A stretch of DNA of 64,000 nucleotides from Gammaproteobacteria bacterium (GTDB lineage Bacteria; Pseudomonadota; Gammaproteobacteria; GCA-001735895). The stretch spans positions 861 through 64,860 of the forward strand of contig JACNJF010000194.1 in assembly GCA_014382695.1 (NCBI GenBank), given 5' to 3'. The notes under the pieces were generated by a model. It was not told the DNA's origin. It searched no databases and saw only the letters and a list, made by a program, of their open reading frames with translations. Below are positions 504 through 62,858 of the stretch, one piece after another (within the stretch, counting starts at the first letter, position 1; each line of letters begins with the position of its first letter). A program made the translations under genes and the position numbers.

Positions 504-1196
504 ATGTACTGGCAGGAAGATCAGGATAAAGGTGAGCACTTCGTTGTTCCAGATGATGTAGTGGACCTACTGTTCAGTATCGAGTGCAGAGATCTGCCGC
601 TGGATCATGGCTTTGTACTGTCACAGCAGATCATAAAAAATCTGCCCTGGATACAGGAAGAGCCGCAGGCAGGCATCCATCAGATACATGTGGCCGAATC
701 GGCGAATGGCTGGATGCGTCCGGAAAATACTGAAACCGAAGTGCTGTGTGTTTCTCGTCGTACTAAAATGACACTACGATTGCCAGCCAGCAGACTGGAT
801 GAGGCAACAGCATTGACTGGAAAAACGCTCGACATACAGGGCCATGCGTTGACGGTAGGGCGTTTCTCTACCCGCAAACTGAGTCGATTAACCACTATAT
901 TTGCGCGTTATGTGGATACCCTCGGTAGCGATGACGAAACCGAGTTCCTGGAGTCGATGCAGCAACAACTGTTGCAGAAAGGCATCCGGGTTAAGAAGAT
1001 GATGAGTGGAAGGCTGCTCACCCATCAAAGCGATGAAGGCATCATCCTCACCCGTAAACTGATGGTTAGCGACCTGACCGTTGAAGAGTCTGTGCTGCTG
1101 CAGGAGCAGGGCATAGGCGACCGAAAATTAATGGGAATGGGTATCTTTATGCCACATAAGGGCATAGATGCGGTGAATAAAAAGCAGGAAGGCTAG
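504..1196 (+). CDS. hypothetical protein with a Cas6/RAMP-like C-terminal glycine-rich loop (GIGDRKLMGMGIF)
   Basis: A strong SD (AGCAGGGGAG) lies 7 nt upstream of the ATG. The C-terminal motif QEQGIGDRKLMGMGIFMP closely resembles the CasE G-loop GIGPAKSMGCGLL and the Cas6f G-loop GLSKGGFVPWF. No cas genes or repeats are nearby. Confidence 0.6.
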   Translation: MYWQEDQDKGEHFVVPDDVVDLLFSIECRDLPLDHGFVLSQQIIKNLPWIQEEPQAGIHQIHVAESANGWMRPENTETEVLCVSRRTKMTLRLPASRLDEATALTGKTLDIQGHALTVGRFSTRKLSRLTTIFARYVDTLGSDDETEFLESMQQQLLQKGIRVKKMMSGRLLTHQSDEGIILTRKLMVSDLTVEESVLLQEQGIGDRKLMGMGIFMPHKGIDAVNKKQEG

Positions 1197-1301: not shown

Positions 1302-1622
1302 ATGGCACTTGAGTCAGTCGAAAGAACAGAAAAAGGTTACCTGGTCAATTCAAATGACTGGAATGAAGAAATCGCAGCAGAGCTTTTTGCAGAAGAAGGC
1401 ATTACTCCTACCAAAGAACACTGGGATATCATCAAGTACGTGCGTGAGGAAACGCTGGGTGGAGATGAGCCGAATGAGCGTAGCATCATGAAAGCGATGG
1501 GCAAGATCTGGGGGCGCAAGGTGAGCTCGAAGGAAATGTATGAAATGTTTCCCCTTATGCCGTCCAAGCAGGGTCTGAAGATTGGTGGTTGTCCGCAAAG
1601 TACCCGTAAAGGCGGTTATTGA
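1302..1622 (+). CDS. tusE: TusE/DsrC-family sulfur relay protein
   Basis: The sequence aligns with E. coli TusE: EGYL..W.E..A...AE.EGI.....HW....VR, then the LFP/MFP motif followed by KQGLKIGG-C. The Cys is conserved but the C-terminus is extended relative to canonical GLPKPxxC-x. Confidence 0.7.
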   Translation: MALESVERTEKGYLVNSNDWNEEIAAELFAEEGITPTKEHWDIIKYVREETLGGDEPNERSIMKAMGKIWGRKVSSKEMYEMFPLMPSKQGLKIGGCPQSTRKGGY

Positions 1623-2190: not shown

Positions 2191-5100
2191 ATGATTTTAG
2201 CGCAACCATTAACTCGACCGGATATAGGGATGCATCAGTCTATCTCTGTTGGCATCAATGGCTTATTCCATGATCTCGAATATAGTTTAAGTTTACTTTT
2301 CAATATATTGATTTATTTAGTATTTGTATCAATATTTCTGCTGTCTTCTGTTGCATTTGCCAATCAGGCACCTGGTTTTGTGGCAACCTCTTTACTACGC
2401 GTAGCCCTCGATGATAACTATCCACCATACGTCATGCGTAGGACTGATGGTTCAGTTGAAGGTTACCTGATCGATGAATGGAAGTTGTGGGAAGCTAAAA
2501 CCGGTGTCAAAGTCGAGCTGATTGCGACGGACTGGGCGCAGGCAAAAAAAAACATGGCAGAGGGCCGCTCCGATGTGATTGATACTATCTTCCGCACGTC
2601 TGAGAGGGAAACCCGACTGGAATTCAGTGCGCCATACGCGACCTTGCCCGTTTCCATCTATACGATTTCGAAACTGCTCGGTATCAATGATATCAACGGA
2701 CTGGAAGGCTTTCGGGTGGGTGTAAAGGATGGTGATGCCTGTGTCGACAGGCTGCGTGCCGGCGGAATTACCGATATAAAGCCTTATACCGATTATGAAA
2801 CCCTGTTGCAGGCAGTTCTGGCTGAGAAGGTGCATGTTTTCTGTATGGATGATCCCCCTGCCAATTATCTTATTTTCCGGGCTGGAGCCGAACACAAGCT
2901 ACTCAAGGCTTTTAGCCTGTATAGCGGAGAGTTTCATCGTGCCGTGCGCAAAGGTGATAGCGCGACTCTGGCTCTGGTTGAGTCGGGATTTGCAGCGATT
3001 ACAGCGCCTGAGCGTGAAGCGTTGCAGGATAAGTGGATGGGACAGAGCCTGCAAAATCCATTGCTACGCAATCTCATTTATTACCTTGTTATTGCTGCGA
3101 TCCTGGCGGTGTTACTGCTGGTCGTATCACTCATACTTCGCCATCTGGTGAGAGTACGCACAGCCGCTCTGGTCACTTCACAAAATAAACTGCAGGCGAC
3201 ACTGGATGCGTTACCGGACCTCTTGTTTGAGATGGATATCAACGGGTGTTATCTCGCTTACCACTCTCCCCGCACCGATTTACTGGCGCTTCCTGTCGAG
3301 CATTTTCTGGGCAAGAAAAACGATGAATTATTGCCGCCCGAAGTGGCTAAAATTGGCATGGAGGCAATACAAGAAGCCGCACAAATGGGCTTTTCCTCGG
3401 GCCGCCAGTTTGAGTTAAGGCTCGGTGGTGTGATTCACTGGTTTGAGCTATCGGTTGCTCGAAAATCGGGTGAGGCTGGCAAACTTCCTTCCTTCGTCGT
3501 ACTTTCTCGTGATATCACCTCACGTAAGCTGGCAGAGTTACAGGTTGCCCGTTTGACCCGTCTATACGCAGCCTTAAGTCAGTGCAACCAGGCGATAGTA
3601 CGTTGCACAACTGAAGCTGAGCTGTTTACCCAGATTTGCCGCGATGCGGTGAATTTTGGTGGGATGAAAATGGCCTGGATCGGTTTGATGGACGAAACCA
3701 CCAACAGTGTTAATCCAGTGGCCGCTTTTGGCGAGGGAATTAAGTATCTGGAGGGACTGGAGATTTCCCTGGATGCGAATTCAGCCAGTGGTCGTGGCCC
3801 GACCGGAATCGCCTTACGCGAAGACCGGCCTTACTGGTGCCAGGATTTTGAGCAGGATCCGGCTACTGCACTTTGGCATGAGCGCGCTGCAGAGTTTGGC
3901 TGGAAATCATCGGCGGCATTACCTCTTTACCGCAACAATATCATCATCGGTGCCTTTAATCTGTATGAAGATAGTGTCGATGCGTTTGATGAGGCCGCGC
4001 AAAACCTGCTGGTCGAAATGGCAACCGATATCAGCTATGCGCTGACCAATTTTGCCCATCAGCAAGCGCGCCAGCAGGCGGAACATGAACGTGAACAGTT
4101 GCTGCAACGAGAACAGCAGGCACGCAATGAAGCCGATAAAACGCGCCGGACCATCAGCGATATCATCGGTAGAATCAGTGATGGCTTCGTCGCACTGGAC
4201 AGAAACTGGTGCTACACCTATGTCAATTCTCAGGCTGCTGAGATGTTTGATCGTAGCGTAGAACAACTAGTCGGTAAGCATATCTGGACAGAGTTCCCCG
4301 AAGGGGTGGGGCAAAAATTTCAACTGGCCTACGAAAAAGCGATGCATGAGCAGAAACCAGCTTTTTTTGAGGAGTATTATCCACCTTATAAGCGCTGGTT
4401 TGAGAATCACATCTATCCATCCCCGGATGGGATATCGATTTACTTTCACGATGTCACCGAACGCAAGCGCATAGAGCAGGCATTACGCGAAAGTGAACAG
4501 GCTTACCGCGCTACTTTTGAGCAGGCCGCTGTGGGTATTGCAAATGTAGCAGCCGATGGGACCTGGCTCGAGGTTAATAACCGGCTGGCTGAGATTGTCG
4601 GCTATACGCATGATGAGTTACTCGAGTTGACCTTTCAGGACATCACGCATCCGGCTGATCTACAGAAAGATCTGGACAGTGTGCATCGGTTACTGGCTGG
4701 AGAAATCGATACCTACAAAATGGAGAAGCGCTATATCCGTAAGTCAGGTGACTTCATATGGATACAGTTAACTGCTTCGCTGGTGAAAAATGATGACGGA
4801 TCGCCCAAATACTTTATTTCAGTAATAGAGGATATCCATCAGCGTAAACTTGATGAGGTTCAATTGCATAAATTGTCGATCGTGGTTGAGCAAAGCCCCA
4901 ATCCCATCATGATTACCGATCTGGACACCAAGATTGAGTATGTGAATGCAGCTTTCAATCAAGTCTCCGGTTACAGTTCAGACGAAGCGCTGGGGAAAAC
5001 ACCGCAATTATTAAAATCAGGCGAGACTCCCATCGAGGTCTATCAGGATATGTGGGCACATCTTTTACGCGGTGAGGTATGGCGTGGAGAACTAACCAAT

Positions 5101-6531
5101 CAACGCAAGGATGGCAGCGTGTATGACGAGCTGGCGATCATTTCGCCGGTGCGTGATGCCAATGGAACTATCACCAATTATCTCGGCATCAAGGAAAACA
5201 TTACCGAGAAAAAGCATGCTGAAGCGCGCATTCAGCAACTGGCCTATTTTGACCAACTCACCGGCCTGCCCAATCGCAGCCAGTTGATTGACCGCTTCAA
5301 TTCTGCACTCAGTTTTGCGCAACGTAATACTGAGAAATTGGCGCTCATGTTTCTGGATCTGGATCATTTCAAGAATATCAATGACACCCTGGGGCATAGT
5401 ATTGGAGATAAATTACTGGTAAAGGTTGCGCACCGGCTTAAACGTATCCTGCGCGAAGAGGACACTTTATCGAGGCTGGGCGGTGATGAGTTCATCCTGT
5501 TATTGCCAAATACCGAGGAAGATGAAGCGCGCCAGATTGCGATTAAACTGATTGAAGCGATTGCTCTACCGTTTCAGCTTGATCAGTATGAACTGGGAAG
5601 TACGCTGTCGATAGGTATTGCGATCTACCCGCTTGATGGCGAAGACTTTGAAACACTGCTACGCAATGCGGATACCGCAATGTACCGGGTGAAACAGGCC
5701 GCGCGTAACGATTTCTGTTTCTTTACCGAGGAGATGCAACTGCATTCTGCGCGCGCATTGAAACTACTGAATGCATTACGTCATGCGCTGGCACGGAATG
5801 AACTGCAGCTACATTATCAGCCACAAATAGAGTTGGTCAGTGGAAGGGTGATTGGTGCGGAAGCCTTACTGCGTTGGAACAATGCTGAGCTGGGTATGAT
5901 TTCACCGGCTGAGTTTATCCCGATTGCGGAAGAGAGTGGACTGATTTTACCGATCGGTGAATGGGTGTTGCGCAGCGCAGTGACTCAGATGAAGCGCTGG
6001 ATGGATGACGGCCTGGCACCGATTGTCGTAGCCGTGAATCTGTCCGTGGTGCAGTTTCGTCATCCTAATCTGACCGACCTGGTCACACGGATACTGAAAC
6101 AGGCTGGTTTGCCGGCGCAGTATCTGGAGCTGGAGTTGACCGAGGCGGTTGCGATGAAAGATCCACAGGGTGCTATTGGAGTGATGAACCGATTGCATGA
6201 GCAAGGTATCCAGATGTCGATCGATGACTTTGGAACCGGTTATTCCAGTTTGAGTTATCTAAAGAAATTCAAGATTGCCAAACTCAAAATCGACCAGTCA
6301 TTTGTACGCGATATTATTGATGATCCGGATGATAGGGCGATTGTGGTTGCGATCATCAATCTGGCCCGTAGTCTGGGTATCCAAACCCTTGCCGAAGGGG
6401 TCGAAACGGAGCATCAGCAGTCACTCCTGCAGGCCCAGGGCTGTGATGAAGTGCAGGGTTATTACTACAGCAGACCGCTGCCGGCGGATCAGTTTGAAGC
6501 CTATGTGCGGAATAAGACAGGCTTAAATTGA
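2191..6531 (+). CDS. sensor diguanylate cyclase/phosphodiesterase: periplasmic SBP (family 3)-like domain, TM, GAF/PAS, three PAS/PAC, GGDEF, EAL
   Basis: Signal/TM segment LIYLVFVSIFLLSSVAFA. A solute-binding-like domain precedes a second TM. The GGDEF motif RLGGDEF is intact with an RxxD I-site (REED), and the EAL motifs EALLRW and DDFGTGYSSL are intact. The true start may lie downstream of 2191. Confidence 0.9.
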   Translation: MILAQPLTRPDIGMHQSISVGINGLFHDLEYSLSLLFNILIYLVFVSIFLLSSVAFANQAPGFVATSLLRVALDDNYPPYVMRRTDGSVEGYLIDEWKLWEAKTGVKVELIATDWAQAKKNMAEGRSDVIDTIFRTSERETRLEFSAPYATLPVSIYTISKLLGINDINGLEGFRVGVKDGDACVDRLRAGGITDIKPYTDYETLLQAVLAEKVHVFCMDDPPANYLIFRAGAEHKLLKAFSLYSGEFHRAVRKGDSATLALVESGFAAITAPEREALQDKWMGQSLQNPLLRNLIYYLVIAAILAVLLLVVSLILRHLVRVRTAALVTSQNKLQATLDALPDLLFEMDINGCYLAYHSPRTDLLALPVEHFLGKKNDELLPPEVAKIGMEAIQEAAQMGFSSGRQFELRLGGVIHWFELSVARKSGEAGKLPSFVVLSRDITSRKLAELQVARLTRLYAALSQCNQAIVRCTTEAELFTQICRDAVNFGGMKMAWIGLMDETTNSVNPVAAFGEGIKYLEGLEISLDANSASGRGPTGIALREDRPYWCQDFEQDPATALWHERAAEFGWKSSAALPLYRNNIIIGAFNLYEDSVDAFDEAAQNLLVEMATDISYALTNFAHQQARQQAEHEREQLLQREQQARNEADKTRRTISDIIGRISDGFVALDRNWCYTYVNSQAAEMFDRSVEQLVGKHIWTEFPEGVGQKFQLAYEKAMHEQKPAFFEEYYPPYKRWFENHIYPSPDGISIYFHDVTERKRIEQALRESEQAYRATFEQAAVGIANVAADGTWLEVNNRLAEIVGYTHDELLELTFQDITHPADLQKDLDSVHRLLAGEIDTYKMEKRYIRKSGDFIWIQLTASLVKNDDGSPKYFISVIEDIHQRKLDEVQLHKLSIVVEQSPNPIMITDLDTKIEYVNAAFNQVSGYSSDEALGKTPQLLKSGETPIEVYQDMWAHLLRGEVWRGELTNQRKDGSVYDELAIISPVRDANGTITNYLGIKENITEKKHAEARIQQLAYFDQLTGLPNRSQLIDRFNSALSFAQRNTEKLALMFLDLDHFKNINDTLGHSIGDKLLVKVAHRLKRILREEDTLSRLGGDEFILLLPNTEEDEARQIAIKLIEAIALPFQLDQYELGSTLSIGIAIYPLDGEDFETLLRNADTAMYRVKQAARNDFCFFTEEMQLHSARALKLLNALRHALARNELQLHYQPQIELVSGRVIGAEALLRWNNAELGMISPAEFIPIAEESGLILPIGEWVLRSAVTQMKRWMDDGLAPIVVAVNLSVVQFRHPNLTDLVTRILKQAGLPAQYLELELTEAVAMKDPQGAIGVMNRLHEQGIQMSIDDFGTGYSSLSYLKKFKIAKLKIDQSFVRDIIDDPDDRAIVVAIINLARSLGIQTLAEGVETEHQQSLLQAQGCDEVQGYYYSRPLPADQFEAYVRNKTGLN

Positions 6532-33215: not shown

Positions 33216-33686
33216 ATGAAACTATCAACAAAAGGTCGTTATGCGGTAACTGCGATGATGGATATTGCACTTCACGAAAAAGTAGGTCCTGTTACTTTGG
33301 CCGATATCTCTCAATGTCAGGGCATTTCACTGTCCTACCTGGAACAGTTGTTTTCTAAATTACGTAATAATGGACTGGTGAAAGGTGTCAGAGGTCCTGG
33401 CGGTGGCTATAGACTAGCCAAACCGGCGCATCAAATCTCTGTTGCCGATATCATCGATTCTGTCGATGAAAAGCTGGATCTGACTAAATGTGGTGGTAAG
33501 GGTAATTGTAACAAGGGTGAAAAGTGTTTAACCCACAAACTCTGGTATGACCTGACCTGTGATTTGCATCGTTATCTGGGCGGTATCAAGCTCGATCAAT
33601 ACGTTAACCGTCCTCAGATCAGTGAATTAGTTAAAAAACAGGATGTACAATACGGCAGATTTTTGAATCGCCGTTCGGCAGCCTGA
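33216..33686 (+). CDS. iscR: Fe-S cluster assembly transcriptional regulator IscR (Rrf2 family)
   Basis: Rrf2 HTH at the N-terminus, and the three cluster-ligand Cys in CGGKGNCNKGEKC. Confidence 0.9.
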   Translation: MKLSTKGRYAVTAMMDIALHEKVGPVTLADISQCQGISLSYLEQLFSKLRNNGLVKGVRGPGGGYRLAKPAHQISVADIIDSVDEKLDLTKCGGKGNCNKGEKCLTHKLWYDLTCDLHRYLGGIKLDQYVNRPQISELVKKQDVQYGRFLNRRSAA

Positions 33687-33737
33687 AGGTTGCGATTTAT
33701 AAACCCAATTTAATGATAAAGCTAAAGAGTATTATTG

Positions 33738-34961
33738 ATGAGTAATTTAAGACTTCCAATTTATCTGGATTACAGTGCTACAACGCCAATTGATCAGCGC
33801 GTCGCTGCTAAAATGGCAGAATATCTGACTATAGAGGGTCAGTTTGGTAACCCTGCCTCGCGCAGTCATGCGTTTGGCTGGAAAGCAGAAGAAGCGGTAG
33901 AGCTTGCCCGTAAGCAGGTTGCTGAGCTGGTGAATGCCGATCCACGTGAAATTATCTGGACCAGTGGAGCCACCGAGTCTGATAATCTGGCGATTAAGGG
34001 TGCTGCACACTTTTATAAGAAAAAAGGTAACCATATCATTACTGTTAAAACCGAGCATAAAGCGGTTTTAGATACCACCAGACAACTGGAACGAGAAGGT
34101 TTCGAAGTTACTTATCTGACCCCGGAAGACAATGGCTTGCTGGATCTGGAAAAGCTCAGGGCTGCAATGCGTGATAGCACGATCATTGTTTCTGTGATGC
34201 ATGTTAATAATGAAATCGGTGTGATTCAGGATATCGCCACTATTGGTGAAATATGCCGCGAAAAAGGGATTATTTTTCATGTCGATGCAGCGCAGTCACC
34301 CGGCAAGGTGACGATCGATCTGGCTGAATTGAAGGTTGATCTGATGTCGTTTTCCGGTCATAAGATTTATGGACCAAAAGGTATTGGCGCCCTGTATGTG
34401 AGGCGCAAGCCACGCATCCGTCTGGAAGCCCAGATGCATGGTGGTGGACATGAACGAGGATTGCGCTCTGGAACACTGGCTACCCATCAAATCGTCGGTA
34501 TGGGTGAAGCGTTCCGAATCGCCAAGGAAGAGATGGCGACCGAAAATGAGCGTATCCGTATGCTACGTGATCGGCTGTATAACGGCCTTAACGATATGGA
34601 AGAGGTTTACCTGAATGGTGATCTGGAGCATCGTATTGCCGGCAATCTGAATATCAGTTTTAATTTTGTGGAAGGCGAGTCGCTGATTATGGCTTTACGT
34701 GATCTTGCGGTTTCATCAGGCTCTGCCTGTACTTCTGCCAGTCTGGAGCCATCCTATGTGCTGAGAGCATTAGGACGTAACGATGAGCTGGCGCATAGTT
34801 CCATCCGCTTTACGCTGGGACGCTATACGACGGTTGAAGAAGTGGATTACACCATTGAGCTGGTGAGAAAGGCAGTGACCAAGCTGCGAGAGCTTTCACC
34901 CCTGTGGGATATGTATAAGGCAGGTATAGATTTAAACTCCGTTGAATGGGTTGCCCATTAA
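33738..34961 (+). CDS. iscS: cysteine desulfurase IscS
   Basis: Near-identity to E. coli IscS over long stretches ([56 protein letters not shown]). Confidence 0.97.
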
Positions 34962-34985
34962 CGCAAAACTATTGAGGTAATCGAA

Positions 34986-35363
34986 ATGGCATATAGTGAA
35001 AAAGTACTGGATCATTATGAGAATCCGCGCAACGTCGGCGTAATCGATGAAGATGACAGTGTAGGCACCGGTATGGTTGGTGCTCCTGCCTGTGGTGATG
35101 TGATGAAGCTACAGATCAAGGTTAGTAAAGATGGCATTATTGAAGATGCTAAATTTAAAACCTATGGCTGTGGTTCAGCGATTGCATCCAGCTCGCTGGT
35201 AACCGAATGGGTAAAGGGTAAAACCCTGGATCAGGCGGCAGAAATCAAAAATACCCATATTGCTGAAGAGCTGGCCTTACCACCGGTTAAGATCCATTGC
35301 TCGGTACTGGCAGAAGATGCGATTGCTGCTGCAATCTCCAACTACCGACAGAAACATCAGTAA
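34986..35363 (+). CDS. iscU: Fe-S cluster scaffold IscU
   Basis: MAYSEKVLDHYENPRNVG, the conserved Cys residues, and the LPPVK motif. Confidence 0.97.
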   Translation: MAYSEKVLDHYENPRNVGVIDEDDSVGTGMVGAPACGDVMKLQIKVSKDGIIEDAKFKTYGCGSAIASSSLVTEWVKGKTLDQAAEIKNTHIAEELALPPVKIHCSVLAEDAIAAAISNYRQKHQ

Positions 35364-36431: not shown

Positions 36432-36656
36432 AACATTCTCCTCAAATTCAGACGATAAAAAAAGATTATTTGGCGCTGTAGCGCACTCGTAAGAATTGCC
36501 ACAGGCCGAAAAATGTGAGTATTTTACTAGAAAAAACGCAGTTTATAATATCTCTATTGGGAGTATGCGTGGATTTACGTCCCATCAGGGATATTCGAAT
36601 AATAATGAATAATGATTATTATTATCAACAGTTTATTTATCAGGAGTATATATTTG

Positions 36657-37082
36657 ATGACTACCGATGCTGATATGAATTTTATTAGTGGTATGTCGGC
36701 CTTTGAATCTAAAGAGTTCATCCGCGCCGTACAGTTTTTACTACCCTTTGCCGAAAAAGGTGACCCGGATGCCCAGCACCGTGTTGCTATCATGTACCAA
36801 AATGGTCTGGGCATGGTGAAAAAGGAAGCACTGGCTTTCAAGTGGATGAAAGCGGCCGCTGACCAGGGCCATGCGGTTGCACAGCATGGACTCGGGTTTA
36901 TGTATATGGATGGCGATTGTGTTGAAAAGGATGGCGCCAAAGCGGTTGAATGGTTTAGCAAGGCTGCCGATCAGGGGCTGGTCGGCTCGATGACGACACT
37001 TGCCATGATGTATGAATCTGGTGATGGGATTGAGAAAGACCCAGAGAAAGCAAAAGAACTTTACGCGAAGGCGGGGTTTTAA
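36657..37082 (+). CDS. Sel1-repeat (TPR-like) protein
   Basis: Three Sel1-like repeats (AQHRVAIMYQNGLG, AQHGLGFMYMDGD, LAMMYESGDG). SD CAGGAG lies upstream of the 36657 ATG. The track start at 36612 lies inside an AT-rich repeat. The stop overlaps the next start (TAATG). Confidence 0.75.
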   Translation: MTTDADMNFISGMSAFESKEFIRAVQFLLPFAEKGDPDAQHRVAIMYQNGLGMVKKEALAFKWMKAAADQGHAVAQHGLGFMYMDGDCVEKDGAKAVEWFSKAADQGLVGSMTTLAMMYESGDGIEKDPEKAKELYAKAGF

Positions 37083-38125
37083 TGCGTCCTGCGTTTTTGT
37101 CCAAAGTTCTGGAAGAAGAACTACTGGGAACGCTTAAAGGTCATCACACACCGGTGATGGTATGGGGCCCGCCAGGGGTTGGCAAATCACAGATCGTGCT
37201 GCAGATTGGGCAAACCCATAAGCTGCCGGTGATCGATATCCGGCTATCTCAGATGGAACCGAGCGATTTGCGCGGTATCCCGTTTAAACAGGGCAGTAAG
37301 GTTGAATGGGCGGTACCTTCGATGTTGCCCGATGCTAAAACCCATGGCAGTTCAGGCATTCTGTTTCTGGATGAAATAAATTCGGCAGCCCCTTCGGTGT
37401 CAGCAGCGGCCTATCAGCTTATCCTGGATCGCCGACTGGGGAACTATGAAGTACCGCAGGGCTGGGCCATCTTTGCTGCCGGCAACCGACAGGGCGATCG
37501 TGGAGTGACCTATGCGATGCCTGCACCACTGGCGAATCGCTTCTCACATTATGAAATCGATCTGCATCTGGATGACTGGGTGGCCTGGGCCTATAAAAAC
37601 GGTATCGATGAACGCATCATCGGTTTTTTACGTTTTCGCCCGGAGTTACTGTTTGATTTTGATCCGGCGCACAACCCGGTCGCTTTTCCATCACCGCGTT
37701 CCTGGGAGTTTGCTCATCGCGCATTACAAAAATTTATCGATTACCCGAATCTGTTGCTGGGTTCGTTACAGGCCTGTGTTGGTCCTGCGGCAGGAATCGA
37801 ATGTCATGCGTTTATTGAAAGTCTGGATCAAATGCCGGATCTGGATAAGATTATCAATGGTGAAGACATCAAGGCACCGGATGAAATCGACCTGCAATAT
37901 GCAGTGGCTTCTGCACTGGTAGGCCGTGCGATTCGTGCTCAGTCGAGCGCGCAGTCGGCGACTATCTATGGCAATATCCTTAACTATGCGGGTCGTTTTC
38001 CGCAGCGTGAAATGGGTGTAATGCTGGTATCGGATATGCATCGGGCGATTGGTAATGATCTGTTTGAACTGACCGAATTTGCCAGCTGGGCCGATTCTAT
38101 TGCCGATCTGATTCTGTACGACTGA
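37082..38125 (+). CDS. MoxR-like AAA+ ATPase (AAA_5 family)
   Basis: Walker A GPPGVGKS and Walker B ILFLDEIN. The sensor and arginine region (AAGNRQGDRG) is typical of the CbbQ/NorQ/MoxR clade. Confidence 0.9.
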   Translation: MRPAFLSKVLEEELLGTLKGHHTPVMVWGPPGVGKSQIVLQIGQTHKLPVIDIRLSQMEPSDLRGIPFKQGSKVEWAVPSMLPDAKTHGSSGILFLDEINSAAPSVSAAAYQLILDRRLGNYEVPQGWAIFAAGNRQGDRGVTYAMPAPLANRFSHYEIDLHLDDWVAWAYKNGIDERIIGFLRFRPELLFDFDPAHNPVAFPSPRSWEFAHRALQKFIDYPNLLLGSLQACVGPAAGIECHAFIESLDQMPDLDKIINGEDIKAPDEIDLQYAVASALVGRAIRAQSSAQSATIYGNILNYAGRFPQREMGVMLVSDMHRAIGNDLFELTEFASWADSIADLILYD

Positions 38126-38134
38126 TGACGGTTC

Positions 38135-39505
38135 GTGGATAGTTCACTCGAAGCAATTGAAAACAAATTGAGTGCAGCGCGCACTCGATTGATCCTGGAT
38201 AAACCATTTTTGGGGGCGCTGGTGTTGCGTCTGCCGTTGCAGGCGGCCGATCCGAGCTGGTGTGCAACCACCGGTACCGATGCCCGAAAGTTCTATTACA
38301 ATCCGGCCTATATTCAGGAGCTGCGCGCCGATGAAACCCAGTTTGTGCTGGCACACGAAGCCCTGCATTGCGCGCTGTCGCATTTTGCACGGCGCGGTCA
38401 TCGGGTTAAACACCGCTGGGATATCGCCTGTGATTATGCGATTAATCCGCTGCTGTTAGATGAAGGGCTGAAGCCGCCACCCGGCTCTCTGATGCTGCGT
38501 GAGTACCGTGGGATGACGGCGGAGGAAATCTATCCGATGATTCAGGATAACGATATGTCCGAGTCGCTGGATCAGCATCTGTACGATAAACAGGAGCAAA
38601 CCGAAGGCGGGCAGGATAAACAGCAAAATCCACTCGATCAGAAGGATTCAAAAAGTCAGTCTGGTGGTGAAGGTCAGGTGCAACGGCAGGATCAGTCGAA
38701 TAAACCTGCACAGGGCAATCAGCCTGACGAACCGGCGGATAGCGAAAAAAATCCGCAGCAGGATGAAAGCGCGGGCCTGCCGAGACAGAGCAACGATCAG
38801 TTACCCGGAAAAGCCAGCGGTGCCGCCAGTAAAGACCTGCAAAGCAGTGCACCGCAGCCGTTAACCGAATCAGAAAAATCAGATCTGCATGTGCAGTGGC
38901 AGCAGCGACTGGCTGGTTCGGCACAACAGGCGCAGCAGGCCGGTAAGCTGGGTGAAGGCATCGCGCGCATGATCGATTTTTTTCTGCAGCCGACCTTACC
39001 CTGGCGTGTATTACTGGCACGCCATATGAACAGTATTTCGCGCGACGATTACAGCTACACGCGGCCTTCCAGCCGGCGTGGCGATCCGGCGATCTATCCC
39101 AGCCTGCGTAGCCCGCAGATGAACGTGGTGGTCGCTGTCGATGTCAGTGGTTCGATCGACAAGGATGAGCTGGATGAGTTTGTGGCGGAAGTCGATTCAC
39201 TCAAATCCCAGGTTCGGGCGCGTGTCACTTTTCTGACCTGTGATTCAAAGATAACCGGTGATAGTCCTCAGATTTTTGAAGCCTGGGAGTATTGCCGCCT
39301 GCCGGAACGTATTATGGGTGGAGGCAGCACCGATTTTAACCCGGTGTTTGAGTGGGTCGAACGGCATGATGTGAAGCCGGATCTGCTGGTTTACTTTACC
39401 GACGCGGATGGACGATTCCCTCGCTGTCAGGCGCCTTATCCGGTGATCTGGCTGGTGAAAGGCCGTAAGGCCGTTCCCTGGGGCCAGAGAATTCAATTAA
39501 ATTAA
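38135..39505 (+). CDS. HExxH putative metallopeptidase domain (DUF2201_N-like) plus Q/E-rich linker plus C-terminal VWA domain protein
   Basis: GTG start. HEALHCALSH motif at the N-terminus, a low-complexity acidic and Gln-rich linker of about 120 aa, and a VWA domain with MIDAS-like VAVDVSGSID. Confidence 0.85.
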   Translation: MDSSLEAIENKLSAARTRLILDKPFLGALVLRLPLQAADPSWCATTGTDARKFYYNPAYIQELRADETQFVLAHEALHCALSHFARRGHRVKHRWDIACDYAINPLLLDEGLKPPPGSLMLREYRGMTAEEIYPMIQDNDMSESLDQHLYDKQEQTEGGQDKQQNPLDQKDSKSQSGGEGQVQRQDQSNKPAQGNQPDEPADSEKNPQQDESAGLPRQSNDQLPGKASGAASKDLQSSAPQPLTESEKSDLHVQWQQRLAGSAQQAQQAGKLGEGIARMIDFFLQPTLPWRVLLARHMNSISRDDYSYTRPSSRRGDPAIYPSLRSPQMNVVVAVDVSGSIDKDELDEFVAEVDSLKSQVRARVTFLTCDSKITGDSPQIFEAWEYCRLPERIMGGGSTDFNPVFEWVERHDVKPDLLVYFTDADGRFPRCQAPYPVIWLVKGRKAVPWGQRIQLN

Positions 39506-39513
39506 GCGGTCTT

Positions 39514-40632
39514 ATGCAATTATCCAATGAAGATAACCTGCGCCTGAATGTGTTGCTGGCGCAGGACCTGAAAGCGGTTCGCATCGATGAATCGAAAATG
39601 ATCGTGTATGCCTTATCCAGTCGCGGGGATGCCAAAATCCAGCTCAATCCGACTGGCAAGGATGAAAAATATATCCGCCTGGTAAAAGAGCTGCTGTCGA
39701 ACAAGATTATGGGTTCTCCTGGCGGTTATCCGGTGTATATCAAGCGCTGGACACGCATGGGGCAGGAACGTCAGCAGGAAAGCCTGGCGCAATTGCTGTT
39801 ACTGGGTGAGCCGGAAGCGGTGGTGGCGGTGGTGCATGCTCCAACCCTGAGTACCGATATCGCACGCCATGCGTGGTGGGCATTCCCGTCCTCTGAAAAT
39901 GCGCGCCGGTTACTGGAAAAAAAATCCATCGTGGATTCCGATCTGGCGCGAGAGCTGGTCGAGTTTTTACTCGAGTTCCTGCCGTTTGAGATAGAGCACA
40001 GAGACATGATCGATTCGGTTCGATTATGCCTGCAAAATGACCTGTTAACCGCTGCTGAAATCGACGATCTGTGGAAACGGGCGCGGCGTAAACAGAGTCT
40101 GTATGTCGGGTTTTTACACAGCCAGCCGGATGCTCTGCCGGATCAGGCCGGTGCACATCCGCTGTATAAACCGTTGCAGCAGTCTTTGCAGCCACTGGTC
40201 GAGCAGGGCAATGTGTACGCGATCCAGCTATTGCGCTACCTGTCGGAGCCGGGGCAGGGCTTTCTCAGAACCATCATCCGGGTGCTTGAAAAAGCCGCCA
40301 GCCAGGATACGATCGTTTCACTGTTTCAGGCGCTGTCAAACTATAACCGCCTGTTACCTCTGGCATCGGTGAAGCAGCGCGATATCAAGAATGCGGAGCA
40401 GCTGGTCACGGTATGGATAAGTGGCAAGCAGGATGAGCAACTGGTGAGCTGTCTTGAGGCCTGTGCACAATATAGCGATCAGATTCGAGCCATGCTGGTC
40501 ATATCTCAGCTGGATGAAGTGACGCTGTTTCCGATTTTTGGCCTGACCGATGCACTGGGCACGGTGATGCGCAAAAAACTTGAGCCGGTCACCGGCCCTT
40601 TATTGCAACATATCCGGCAGCTGTTACATTAG
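39514..40632 (+). CDS. hypothetical all-alpha protein (372 aa), fourth gene of the MoxR-VWA operon
   Basis: Separated by 8 nt from the VWA gene. No recognisable motif; predicted helical repeats. Confidence 0.7.
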   Translation: MQLSNEDNLRLNVLLAQDLKAVRIDESKMIVYALSSRGDAKIQLNPTGKDEKYIRLVKELLSNKIMGSPGGYPVYIKRWTRMGQERQQESLAQLLLLGEPEAVVAVVHAPTLSTDIARHAWWAFPSSENARRLLEKKSIVDSDLARELVEFLLEFLPFEIEHRDMIDSVRLCLQNDLLTAAEIDDLWKRARRKQSLYVGFLHSQPDALPDQAGAHPLYKPLQQSLQPLVEQGNVYAIQLLRYLSEPGQGFLRTIIRVLEKAASQDTIVSLFQALSNYNRLLPLASVKQRDIKNAEQLVTVWISGKQDEQLVSCLEACAQYSDQIRAMLVISQLDEVTLFPIFGLTDALGTVMRKKLEPVTGPLLQHIRQLLH

Positions 40633-40731
40633 GCGAAGTTCGTGGAGTGCAACTATCGGTTGCGCGATGTTTTCTATATAATGATTTCCTTATATTAAAT
40701 TTAAGGCCTCCAACTGGAGCGGGTGTATGCG

Positions 40732-42132
40732 ATGAAGTACCTTCCGATATTTTATGAAATCACCGATAAGCCCTGTGTAGTGATCGGAGGCGGGGGGATT
40801 GCCGCACGTAAAGCCGACCTGTTACATCAGGCGGGTGCCAGAGTCAGTGTGATTTCCCCCGAGCTGGGCGATGAAATGTCGCGCTTTCAACAACAGGGTA
40901 AGATTAGCTGGCAGCAACGTAATTTTGAGGCAGGTGATCTGACCGATTATTTTCTGGTGATCGCCGCAACCAGTGACAGGCGGGTCAATGAACAGGCTGC
41001 GGCTGAAGCACTGGTGCTGAAGATTCCCTGTAATGTGGTGGATAACCCAGAGCTATGCAGTTTCATCATGCCTTCGATTATCAACCGGGATCCAGTACAG
41101 ATTGCGGTATCTACCGGTGGCGCATCACCGGTGCTAGCACGTCTGATTCGGACCAATCTGGAAAGCTGTACGCCATCGGCCTATGGCAAGCTGGCGAAGC
41201 TGGTCGAAAAGTATCGTGACCGGGTCAAAAGTACCTTCCCACGCGTGGTCGAGCGTCGTAAATTCTGGGAGTCTATTCTGGAAGGGCCGGTGGCTGAACA
41301 TATCTTTGCCGGTCGTAACGACGATGCCCGACAGTTGATTGAACAACTGATCGACAAGGCCGATTCCAACCCGTCCTATAAAGGTGAAGTGTTTCTGGTA
41401 GGTGCCGGTCCGGGAGACCCCGACCTGCTCACCTTTCGCGCCTTACGCCTGATGCAAAAGGCCGATGTCATCGTCTACGATCGACTGGTTTCGCAACCGA
41501 TCATGGATCTGGTGCGGCGTGACGCGGAGCGCATCTACGCCGGCAAGGAACGCTCCCATCATGCGATACCCCAGGAAAACATCAATCAGTTGCTGGTGCG
41601 GTTGGCCAAAGAAGGCAAACGTGTACTACGCCTGAAAGGTGGCGATAACTTCATTTTCGGACGCGGTGGTGAAGAAATATCTGAATTGATCGATGAAGAT
41701 ATCCCGTTTCAGGTCGTGCCCGGTATAACTGCCGCTTCCGGTTGTACAACCTACGCAGGTATTCCGTTAACCCACCGTGATTATGCGCAGGCCTGTATCT
41801 TTGTGACCGGCCACCTGAAGGATGGCTCCAGTGATCTGAACTGGGATATGTTGTCGCATGCGAATCAAACGGTGGTTTTTTACATGGGGCTGGTGAATGT
41901 TCAGTCGATCTGCGATTCACTCAAACAACATGGCCGAGCCGCCTCTACACCGGCTGCGTTGATCGAAAAAGGTACAACGCCGGAACAACGGGTTTTTATC
42001 GGTGATCTGGATACCTTACCGGGGCTGGTGAACCAGAATAATGTCAAGGCCCCGACCCTGATTGTGGTCGGTGAAGTGGTGGAGTTGCATAAGAAACTGC
42101 ACTGGTTCAAGCCGGGCGAAGAGATTAAATAG
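40732..42132 (+). CDS. cysG: siroheme synthase
   Basis: Three functional regions: precorrin-2 dehydrogenase, sirohydrochlorin ferrochelatase, and uroporphyrinogen-III C-methyltransferase. MKYLPIF...VVIGGGGIAARKADLL matches the E. coli CysG N-terminus, and the SUMT motifs VGAGPGDPDLLT are present. Confidence 0.95.
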   Translation: MKYLPIFYEITDKPCVVIGGGGIAARKADLLHQAGARVSVISPELGDEMSRFQQQGKISWQQRNFEAGDLTDYFLVIAATSDRRVNEQAAAEALVLKIPCNVVDNPELCSFIMPSIINRDPVQIAVSTGGASPVLARLIRTNLESCTPSAYGKLAKLVEKYRDRVKSTFPRVVERRKFWESILEGPVAEHIFAGRNDDARQLIEQLIDKADSNPSYKGEVFLVGAGPGDPDLLTFRALRLMQKADVIVYDRLVSQPIMDLVRRDAERIYAGKERSHHAIPQENINQLLVRLAKEGKRVLRLKGGDNFIFGRGGEEISELIDEDIPFQVVPGITAASGCTTYAGIPLTHRDYAQACIFVTGHLKDGSSDLNWDMLSHANQTVVFYMGLVNVQSICDSLKQHGRAASTPAALIEKGTTPEQRVFIGDLDTLPGLVNQNNVKAPTLIVVGEVVELHKKLHWFKPGEEIK

Positions 42133-42855: not shown

Positions 42856-42906
42856 CTTATATATTCGGGTAGAATCCGCGCCTTTTAATCTGTGCAAGGC
42901 GAATCT

Positions 42907-44463
42907 ATGTTCCAACTCACCTGTCCTGGTAAACAATGTGTAAAAAATGATGTGTTATCCGGTCTGACCGTCGCGTTGGCGCTGGTTCCGGAAGCAGTCG
43001 CTTTTGCCTTTGTCGCGGGTGTCGAACCTCTGGTAGGCCTGTACGGCGCCTTTATGATGGGAATCATCACCGCTTTTATCGGCGGTCGTCCCGGTATGAT
43101 TTCTGGAGCCACCGGTGCGATGGCGGTGGTGATGGTGTCGCTGGTTGCTCAGCATGGGGTCGAGTATCTGTTTGCCGCGATTATCGTCACCGGTTTGATC
43201 CAGATGAGTGCCGGTGTGCTGCGCCTGGGCAAGTTTATCCGTCTGGTGCCTTTCCCGGTAATGCTGGGTTTCGTGAATGGTCTCGCCATCGTTATTTTTC
43301 TGGCCCAGTTACAGCAGTTCAAGGTGATTTCAGCCGATGGTGGGCTGGAGTGGATGAGCGGACAGTCATTGTTGATTATGCTGGGTCTGATTGCGCTGAC
43401 CATGGCGATCATCCACTTTTTACCTCGTTTTACGGTTGCTGTTCCAGCTTCTTTGGCTGCCATTATTACAGTGACTCTGCTGGTCATCGGACTGGACCTG
43501 GATAGCCGCTCGGTGGTTGATGTATTGCGTGATATGACGGGCGATATGCAGGCCACGATTGCGGGTGGTCTACCTTCGTTTCATCTACCCGTTGTGCCGT
43601 TTAACTGGGAAACACTGCGGATCATTCTGCCTTACAGCATTATTCTGGCTGGTGTTGGCCTGATTGAGTCGCTGCTGACGCTGAATCTGGTGGATGATCT
43701 GACCGAAACCCGTGGGCGTGGTAATCAGGAGTGTGTCGGGCAGGGAATCGGTAATACCGTCAATGGCCTGTTTGGCGGAATGGGCGGCTGTGCCATGATC
43801 GGACAGTCCATGATCAATATCAATTCGGGAGGCAAGGGCCGCCTGTCAGGCATCAGCGCGGCGCTGTTTCTGCTGGGATTTATTCTGTTCGCTTCCGGCC
43901 TGATCGAAATCATCCCGGTCGCAGCGCTGGTCGGGGTGATGTTCATGGTGGTGCTTGGCACCTTTGAATGGGCCACCTTTCGCATGATCGGTAAAGTGCC
44001 GTTGGCGGATATTCTGATTACCATTCTGGTTGCGGCTGTCACCGTTATATCGGATCTGGCGATCGCCGTTATCGTCGGCGTCATCGTGTCGGCACTGGTA
44101 TTTGCCTGGGAGCATGCCAAGCACATGAACGCGAAGTCTTTTATCGATGAAAATGGCAGTAAAATCTATGAGCTAAACGGGCCGCTGTTCTTTGGTTCGG
44201 TGCATGCCTTTCATGAACTGTTTAATCCACGCGAAGACCCGGATGATGTAATCATCGATTTTTATAATTCACGGGTTGCCGATCATTCCGGCATCGAAGC
44301 CATCGATAGTCTGGCTGAGCGTTATCAGCGTAACGGTAAAACACTGCATCTCAAGCATCTGAGCGAAGAATGCAAGCTGCTGCTACATACGGCCGGAAAC
44401 CTGGTAGAAGTGAATGTAATGGAAGATCCGGTATACCATGTGGCGGATGATCTGCTGGATTAG
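42907..44463 (+). CDS. SulP-family sulfate/anion transporter with C-terminal STAS domain
   Basis: Signature region [18 protein letters not shown], multiple TM helices, and a STAS domain at the C-terminus. Confidence 0.9.
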
Positions 44464-61933: not shown

Positions 61934-62272
61934 ATGAACAGGGAGAATCTGCTGTTATATAACTCGTTCGCTTTTATGGTGGCCCTGAGCAATTTCAGGG
62001 CTATTGCTTTAACTGTAGTTCTACTCTTCCCGTTGATGGGGTCAGGATTAGCGCTTATTGCGCAGTTTCCGCTACAGATATTTCTTTTTATTCTGTTATC
62101 GCAAATAAGCCTGCTGACTTATTTGCTGATCACAGCAAATAGCAACAAACCTCATACCGTCAATCCAGAAATCCGATCTACCATTGGTAAGGGCTTTGGT
62201 TCTGCCTTTTTAGGTTCTGGCATGGCATCTACATTCACTTCACAAAATAAGGTAATTCATCATGGAAAATAA
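61934..62272 (+). CDS. hypothetical small membrane protein
   Basis: ORF starts immediately after the upstream stop. Two or three hydrophobic segments. Low GC. Confidence 0.3.
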
Positions 62273-62858
62273 AAGTACTAATGTTGTCTGGCATAACGCT
62301 ACCGTGACACGTACACGTCGTGAACAGAAAAATAACCACAAGGGAGCCTTATTCTGGTTCACCGGATTTTCCGGTTCTGGAAAATCAACTCTGGCGCATG
62401 CGGTGGAAGAACGTCTATATCTGAATGGTTATAATACTTACGTACTGGATGGAGACAATGTCAGGCATGGTTTATGTGCGGATCTGGCTTTTTCGGATAA
62501 CGACAGGAAAGAAAATATCCGCCGTATTAGCCATATGAGTAATCTGTTTGTGCAGGCAGGGGTGATCGTGCTCACTGCTTTCATTTCGCCTTTTAGAGTT
62601 GATCGTGACAATGCCCGAAAAATAGCGGGTAAAGACTTCCATGAAATTTTCTGTAATTGCAGCCTCGATGTATGTGAGACCAGAGATGTAAAAGGCCTCT
62701 ATAAAAAAGCCAGAGCCGGACAGATCCCCTTTTTTACCGGCATAGATTCACCTTACGAAGCACCGGAACATGCGGAACTGGTGACTAACACCGACGCCAA
62801 TCTTGAGCAGTCTATCGATCAGGTTTATGACTACATCATGTCGAACGTGAAAGTATGA
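62262..62858 (+). CDS. cysC: adenylyl-sulfate (APS) kinase
   Basis: P-loop GFSGSGKST and overall CysC length and similarity. Confidence 0.92.

Follow-up and report, generated by a model that had tools for sequence, protein, structure and literature searches.

The locus and the identity of its fourth gene

Within a 64,000-nucleotide stretch of a Gammaproteobacteria bacterium (contig JACNJF010000194.1; the whole stretch is called the window here), an open reading frame (ORF) at 39514-40632 on the forward strand, running from an ATG start to a TAG stop, encodes a protein of 372 aa (42.2 kDa, pI 6.4) that is predicted to be soluble and is very probably an ortholog of DsrS, judged by sequence evidence at the family level. 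This target gene is the fourth in a tightly packed cluster on the same strand, which starts with a gene for a small cytoplasmic Sel1-repeat protein of 141 aa (36657-37082; Pfam Sel1, three repeats, 2.2e-31), followed by a MoxR-type AAA+ ATPase of 347 aa related to dynein and midasin (37082-38125; Pfam AAA_5 7.1e-09, AAA 5.8e-08) and a 456-aa partner protein carrying a von Willebrand factor A (VWA) domain (38135-39505). Successive gaps between the four genes are -1, 9 and 8 nt, with the Sel1 stop and the MoxR start sharing the sequence TAATG; the Sel1 start given here is that of the gene caller, the mechanical ORF starting at 36612. The gene for the sirohaem synthase CysG (40723-42132, forward strand; start at 40732 according to the gene caller) begins approximately 90 nt 3' of the target and shows the Pfam domains NAD_binding_7, Sirohm_synth_M, CysG_dimeriser and TP_methylase. 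All four cluster proteins are predicted to be soluble and to lack a signal peptide, and no transmembrane segment was predicted in either the Sel1 protein or the target. Promoter- and terminator-like sites 5' of Sel1 and 3' of the target did not exceed shuffle expectation, and the cluster region gave no Rfam match and no meaningful repeats. Two antisense ORFs lying within or across the target (39740-40195 and 39396-39704, minus strand) were treated as frame artefacts, the host gene being rich in GC at third codon positions (0.625).

An earlier reading made from the nucleotide letters without database searches (the sequence-only reading) had described this ORF as an orphan, helical protein coupled to the MoxR-VWA pair. 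The position was exact and both peptides that it quoted were found, at residues 152-178 and 328-349 of a protein containing 15.9% leucine, whereas the orphan status did not hold. A word-indexed search returned at least 3,741 homologs, nearly all of approximately 372 aa, and an exhaustive profile search resolved the family into 520 clusters at 50% identity, 407 of them at E<=1e-10. The family keeps one architecture down to approximately 30% identity, and the full-length relatives listed measure about 345-410 aa and align in a single matched stretch across the profile. Among the matches listed for pattern-matched reference-genome stretches, 593/600 encode a relative of the target, overwhelmingly in sulfur-oxidising Gammaproteobacteria (Thiohalobacter, Thiohalophilus, Thiogranum, Thiothrix, Ectothiorhodospiraceae and Chromatiales).

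Family members were named by exact-sequence look-up in RefSeq, GenBank and UniProt. Over its full length, the target shares 50% identity with the 'sulfur reduction protein DsrS' of Thiohalobacter thiocyanaticus (WP_241546944.1/A0A426QDY0), and the match lists of the target and of a named DsrS protein overlap. The same name is carried by two homologs from metagenome-assembled genomes (MAGs) that are 49-50% identical to the target (HED18495.1 and HSJ48292.1), by a further MAG homolog (MCW9058017.1) and a homolog in Thiohalobacter sp. IOR34, by QKT04024.1 of Ectothiorhodospiraceae bacterium 2226 (43% identity), and by NNM81603.1 from a Burkholderiales MAG, whose cluster representative (P0191) is approximately 38% identical to the target.

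The prototype of the family, DsrS of Allochromatium vinosum (Alvin_1265), received its name as the product of the gene that closes the dsrABEFHCMKLJOPNRS operon, and its reported size is 41.1 kDa. The two proteins are alike in family name (by a transitive link), size, solubility, cytoplasmic location, lack of a recognisable domain and occurrence in sulfur-oxidising Proteobacteria. They differ in setting, the target being the fourth gene of Sel1-MoxR-VWA-DsrS, followed by cysG, and not part of a dsr operon. LT988_06595 of Thiocapsa, which has the same product name and lies beside dsrR and dsrN, has been equated with Alvin_1265 (PMC10892978). A position outside a dsr operon is typical of chemolithotrophs: Sulfurifustis, Sulfuricaulis and Thioalkalivibrio have been reported to carry dsrS away from the dsr cluster, and the published locus tags of Sulfuricaulis place dsrS (SCL_0781) and dsrC (SCL_0785) four genes apart, which is the spacing of the order dsrC-cysG-AAA_5-DUF2201-DsrS that we found in locus L081. 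An operon-terminal family member in a Chromatiaceae-type dsr operon was found neither by sub-clade sampling nor among loci lacking the common neighbours, among members closer to named than to unnamed relatives or through cluster names; the nearest cases are L096 and L009, with dsrN/R a few kb off. The target thereby joins a family that already has a name, although its function continues to be described as unresolved (PMC3368242).

Scans of the target against Pfam, NCBIfam and PADLOC gave noise only (DUF6244, E 0.029; XseB, E 0.017), as did scans of 65 divergent relatives (Rv2179c-like in 6/65, E >= 0.01), and neither the target nor these relatives matched Pfam, NCBIfam or the PDB. Proteins named DsrS gave zero NCBIfam matches either. 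The curated hidden Markov model (HMM) libraries contain no DsrS model, which explains both the blank scans and the label 'hypothetical' on most homologs, the target among them.

Structure prediction, which the sequence-only reading had proposed as a check, bore out the helical character with a confident AlphaFold model (predicted local distance difference test score, pLDDT, of 89). In this model, residues ~1-66 form a small N-terminal beta-sheet/helix module with three strands, and the remainder is an irregular HEAT/ARM-like alpha-solenoid that begins after a loop at residues 67-84 (GSPGGYPVYxKRWTRMGQ), where conservation is high and model confidence is low. Fold comparison of the model returned generic HEAT/ARM matches only, and a solved relative was not found. 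The conserved residues of the family are Arg, Trp and Glu, with no conserved Cys or His, and the extreme N-terminus is unusually conserved (M1, L3, D7 and L11). As a soluble, acidic alpha-solenoid of one fixed architecture in which neither Cys nor His is conserved, DsrS most likely serves in binding or as a scaffold and not as an enzyme. As a speculation, its clustered invariant Arg and Trp residues might fit an acidic ligand, either tetrapyrrole carboxylates or an acidic peptide.

Conservation of the MoxR-VWA-DsrS order

The upstream genes were scored in 62 reference-genome loci with at least 3.5 kb of upstream sequence. MoxR-VWA lies directly 5' of DsrS in 40/62 loci, as Sel1-MoxR-VWA-DsrS in 38 and as MoxR-VWA-DsrS in two, and the junctions are short (median 33 nt). 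A Sel1 homolog is found upstream of DsrS in 53/62 loci, including 15 without MoxR-VWA, and in 32/64 scorable loci a CysG gene follows DsrS on the same strand within 1.5 kb. Both had been overlooked by the sequence-only reading, and we count them as partners at least as constant as MoxR-VWA.

The reference-locus sample being biased, distant sub-clades were also sampled (10 contexts). VWA, together with MoxR where the contig reaches, precedes DsrS in 7/10 of these (L081, L084, L086, L087, L091, L094/L095 and L096), and in the first five the triad persists although DsrS identity is down to 32-41% (32% in L081). The triad is found in Gammaproteobacteria and Betaproteobacteria alike; in the Burkholderiales context L094/L095 the MoxR, VWA and DsrS genes overlap in otherwise unrelated surroundings. 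In L081, a DsrC gene and cysG adjoin the triad. Locus L096 comes from the complete isolate genome of Ectothiorhodospiraceae bacterium 2226, in which the DsrS name was given by the Prokaryotic Genome Annotation Pipeline (PGAP) and the order is Sel1-MoxR-VWA-DsrS-(181 aa)-glutaredoxin-CysG; genes for NrfD, CbiA/GATase_3 and Fe-S_biosyn proteins, which fit dsrP, dsrN and dsrR, lie ~7 kb downstream in convergent orientation. Homologs of dsrN/dsrR also lie ~5 kb from DsrS in L009. In Thiothrix, the components are dispersed, and L030 has a DsrS gene without the MoxR-VWA pair.

Coupling of DsrS to MoxR-VWA is thus real and conserved, and the co-occurrence that the sequence-only reading had proposed as another check was found in 40/62 scorable loci, with the 7/10 distant contexts extending it over Gamma- and Betaproteobacteria. 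Distances among DsrS proteins track those of MoxR, VWA and Sel1 (Spearman 0.76-0.78) and, slightly less, those of CysG (0.54-0.58); in a mirror-tree comparison the signal was only weakly above the phylogeny control. The literature searched contained no paper mentioning both dsrS and MoxR, so within it the conserved Sel1-MoxR-VWA-DsrS(-CysG) module appears to be undescribed.

Other genes recur around DsrS. An ORF of ~180 aa without a Pfam match lies directly 3' of DsrS in 35 loci (e.g., L096:11142-11687 and L064:8140-8679), and a glutaredoxin gene occurs in 32 loci, often after the ~180-aa ORF and before cysG; the target's own clade (the window and L001-L006) has neither. On the opposite strand upstream of Sel1/DsrS, DUF6866 occurs in 37 loci and a 2OG-Fe(II) oxygenase in 30 (e.g., L096:3070-4809, minus strand). 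Neither of these two genes is present in the window, which has a different 2OG-Fe(II) oxygenase (PF13759/PF13640; 35612-36166, minus strand) in the corresponding place.

The MoxR and VWA proteins of the cluster have the features of a working pair. The sequences of known structure nearest to the MoxR protein are midasin AAA domains, its Walker A (GPPGVGKS) and Walker B (FLDE) motifs are invariant in 51/51 orthologs, and among the cluster proteins it has evolved most slowly (mean p-distance 0.22-0.23). The VWA partner consists of an N-terminal helical DUF2201_N domain with the HExxH motif HEALH, a linker and a C-terminal VWA domain with a complete metal ion-dependent adhesion site (MIDAS), and its VWA domain fold resembles those of NorD and BchD. 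All VWA partners compared share the same two Pfam domains, and the complete MIDAS is kept in 56/56. Residues 142-239 form a disordered, acidic, Gln/Pro-rich linker of ~100 residues between the HExxH and VWA domains; its length varies among orthologs (total lengths 357 to 483 aa), and it recalls the linker of NorD, which is functionally essential in that protein.

The sequence-only reading had also pointed to conflict systems, where effector or sensor domains (VMAP-like) occupy this position. On that view, DsrS would be the third component of a MoxR-vWA system for anti-phage defence or programmed death. Such systems likewise combine a MoxR and a vWA gene with a conserved third gene, but the likeness ends with this bare three-gene resemblance and weak, sub-threshold matches of the MoxR protein to bpMoxR (E 0.0017) and defence ATPase models. 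In VMAP systems, the VMAP gene comes first (VMAP-MoxR-vWA), its product contains an alpha/beta VMAP-C domain, and the effector fusions vary greatly (Kaur et al., 2020, PMC7159879). DsrS, in contrast, is encoded 3' of MoxR-VWA and consists, beyond its N-terminal module, of an all-alpha solenoid, with no alpha/beta VMAP-C domain. It keeps a single architecture of ~370 aa over 520 clusters, with no effector fusions or variable domains. DsrS is furthermore single-copy in a housekeeping sulfur and cofactor gene context with co-divergence that looks vertical, differs from these systems in taxon range, and gave no PADLOC match at the family level, and neither did the VWA protein. We consider a conflict role to be effectively refuted.

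A candidate role in sulfite reductase maturation

Characterised MoxR/VWA pairs remodel a specific metalloenzyme, either by cofactor insertion or by repair of an inhibited site (PMC9976466, PMC13036017). With NorQ/NorD, the VWA domain inserts a finger into the hexamer pore and ATP hydrolysis strains the NorD linker, and activation of cNOR requires an intact VWA domain as well as surface carboxylates of the client (PMC9976466, PMC13036017). As in these systems, the ATPase here has both Walker motifs intact and is encoded next to a VWA protein with a complete MIDAS. Compared to NorQ/NorD, CbbQ/CbbO and CoxD/CoxE, the VWA partner has the DUF2201_N HExxH domain instead of the N-terminal domains of NorD and CbbO, and the cluster also encodes Sel1 and the DsrS solenoid as two additional dedicated proteins. 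Gene context (cysG, dsrN/R and dsrC) points here to DsrAB as a candidate client. The Class I Mg- and Co-chelatases (BchI/BchD/BchH and CobS/CobT/CobN) also differ; DsrS is far smaller than BchH or CobN and no homolog of either (no Pfam match), the ATPase belongs to AAA_5 and not to the Mg_chelatase family (E 0.16 only), and CysG already contains the sirohaem ferrochelatase function.

From the gene identities, the fold, the operon-like linkage and the intact motifs of the ATPase and the MIDAS site observed here, we tentatively propose that DsrS acts as the adaptor of a Sel1-MoxR-VWA machine serving the sirohaem-dependent DsrAB, a proposal to which we give somewhat less than an even chance. The Sel1, MoxR, VWA and DsrS proteins would then assemble into a single remodelling machine in the cytoplasm, of the kind known from NorQ/NorD and CbbQ/CbbO, with the MoxR hexamer as the source of ATP-driven force. 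The VWA protein would plug into the MoxR ring and reach the client through its long linker and MIDAS site, and DsrS, perhaps with Sel1 as an adaptor, would supply client or cofactor specificity in a non-catalytic manner. The candidate client is DsrAB, the reverse dissimilatory sulfite reductase with sirohaem and [4Fe-4S] (rDsrAB), or the step that loads this enzyme with sirohaem/siroamide. We favour these since DsrS adjoins cysG in chemolithotrophs and dsrN, encoding a sirohaem amidase, in purple sulfur bacteria, and these two independent contexts tie DsrS to sirohaem; dsrC and dsrN/R also lie near the DsrS cluster in some loci (L081, L096 and L009). A more specific version, in which Sel1-MoxR-VWA(DUF2201)-DsrS is a four-protein, ATP-driven 'sulfite-reductase activase' for the assembly or repair of rDsrAB and DsrS its client- or sirohaem-binding subunit, we regard as conceivable but doubtful. 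As to function, the suggestion of the sequence-only reading, an adaptor or client in an activase-type system, is still the best account.

Several observations weigh against this proposal, the first of them concerning the linkage. Approximately one third of the close loci lack MoxR-VWA beside DsrS (15/62 have Sel1-DsrS and 7/62 none of these genes), as do 3/10 distant contexts (L082/83, L085 and L092/93), and the locus sample is biased toward close relatives of the target. In Thiothrix nivea, a VWA homolog of 60% identity is solitary (L097, JH651384.1 10001-11317); genes for a TIR-domain and an FGE-sulfatase protein lie downstream of it on the opposite strand. The distance correlations between DsrS and its partners are inflated by shared phylogeny. 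DsrS could be independent of MoxR-VWA, serving with Sel1 as a sirohaem/siroamide carrier or DsrAB-binding factor, and the pair would be a separate syntenic insertion. The 15 loci with Sel1-DsrS-CysG and no MoxR-VWA, e.g., in Thiohalobacter thiocyanaticus, would fit such independence, as would solitary DsrS genes, the unlinked VWA gene of T. nivea and the Chromatiaceae, in which dsrS, dsrN and dsrR are neighbours within the dsr operon. However, the gene order is kept down to 32% identity and in Betaproteobacteria, with overlapping genes in entirely different surroundings, the junctions are short (the median of 33 nt given above), and genomes with an unlinked layout may carry the pair elsewhere, as Thiothrix does. 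We therefore find an independent DsrS improbable.

The second group of observations concerns the function. That the proteins form a complex, which client they act on and which cofactor step they serve is inferred from gene context only. In the 64-kb window dsrAB was not seen, only a non-canonical TusE/DsrC-like gene, and the link between the target and Alvin_1265 is transitive, through a shared PGAP product name. Moreover, Grimm, Franz and Dahl reportedly observed in 2011 that deletion of dsrS in A. vinosum merely slows the oxidation of stored sulfur, and are said to have suggested a post-transcriptional role for DsrS. In line with such a role, DsrS might be a helical-repeat, RNA-binding regulator of the translation or stability of dsr mRNA, with MoxR-VWA modulating its conformation or turnover; the acidic pI and the generic fold matches led us to rank this as unlikely, if slightly less so than an independent DsrS.

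Finally, the role of the HExxH domain of the VWA partner is unexplained by the proposed machine, and the motif is degenerate in 8/56 partners (K/Q/R and Q/A substitutions). The presence of HExxH in 48/56 partners, in a domain annotated as a putative metallopeptidase, raises the question if DsrS is instead a substrate that an AAA+-assisted metalloprotease processes or degrades by regulated proteolysis, and its unusually conserved N-terminus (M1, L3, D7 and L11) does resemble a recognition tag. Against this, the eight partners with a degenerate motif are otherwise intact, no match to a peptidase fold was obtained, characterised MoxR proteins are remodelling factors and not protease partners, and DsrS persists without the pair in approximately one third of the loci, leaving regulated proteolysis as quite an improbable explanation.

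If the 'sulfite-reductase activase' version is true, it would provide the first mechanistic role for DsrS and extend the few MoxR/VWA clients, so far cNOR, Rubisco, CODH and fumarate reductase, by a tetrapyrrole enzyme. If the linkage is not functional, the target is an ordinary DsrS ortholog. DsrS is invisible to the Pfam and NCBIfam HMMs and to the PDB, with most homologs filed as 'hypothetical'; recognition of the family would allow thousands of proteins in MAGs of sulfur oxidisers to be annotated better, and together with its neighbourhood makes the question of function testable, as DsrS-VWA binding and as the acquisition or retention of sirohaem/siroamide by DsrAB. Resting on gene context only, and not being a new kind of system, the finding is of moderate interest to specialists in sulfur oxidation and MoxR proteins.

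The DsrC-like gene and other genes of the window

The TusE/DsrC-like gene lies at the start of the window (1302-1622, forward strand) and encodes a 106-aa member of the TusE/DsrC/DsvC family (TIGR03342, 70.6 bits). The protein ends in ...KIGGCPQSTRKGGY, with one Cys and without the penultimate Cys of true DsrC. It directly follows a gene for a 230-aa protein (504-1196, forward strand) matching the type I-MYXAN Cas6/Cmx6 model TIGR02807 (1.1e-35, 123 bits; cut-off 98.85). Homologs of the DsrC-like protein are also encoded in the flanks of L024 and L028.

Closer to the DsrS cluster, an isc cluster at 33216-35363 consists of iscR-iscS-iscU only, with no hscBA, fdx or iscA ORF evident before the divergent oxygenase gene. 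A SulP/STAS sulfate transporter (42892-44463, forward strand) and an adenylyl-sulfate kinase (2.4e-84; 62262-62858, forward strand) are encoded downstream, and together with cysG they indicate genes of assimilatory sulfate metabolism near the DsrS cluster. The window further encodes a 1,446-aa signalling protein with SBP_bac_3, GAF, multiple PAS, GGDEF and EAL domains (2191-6531, forward strand).
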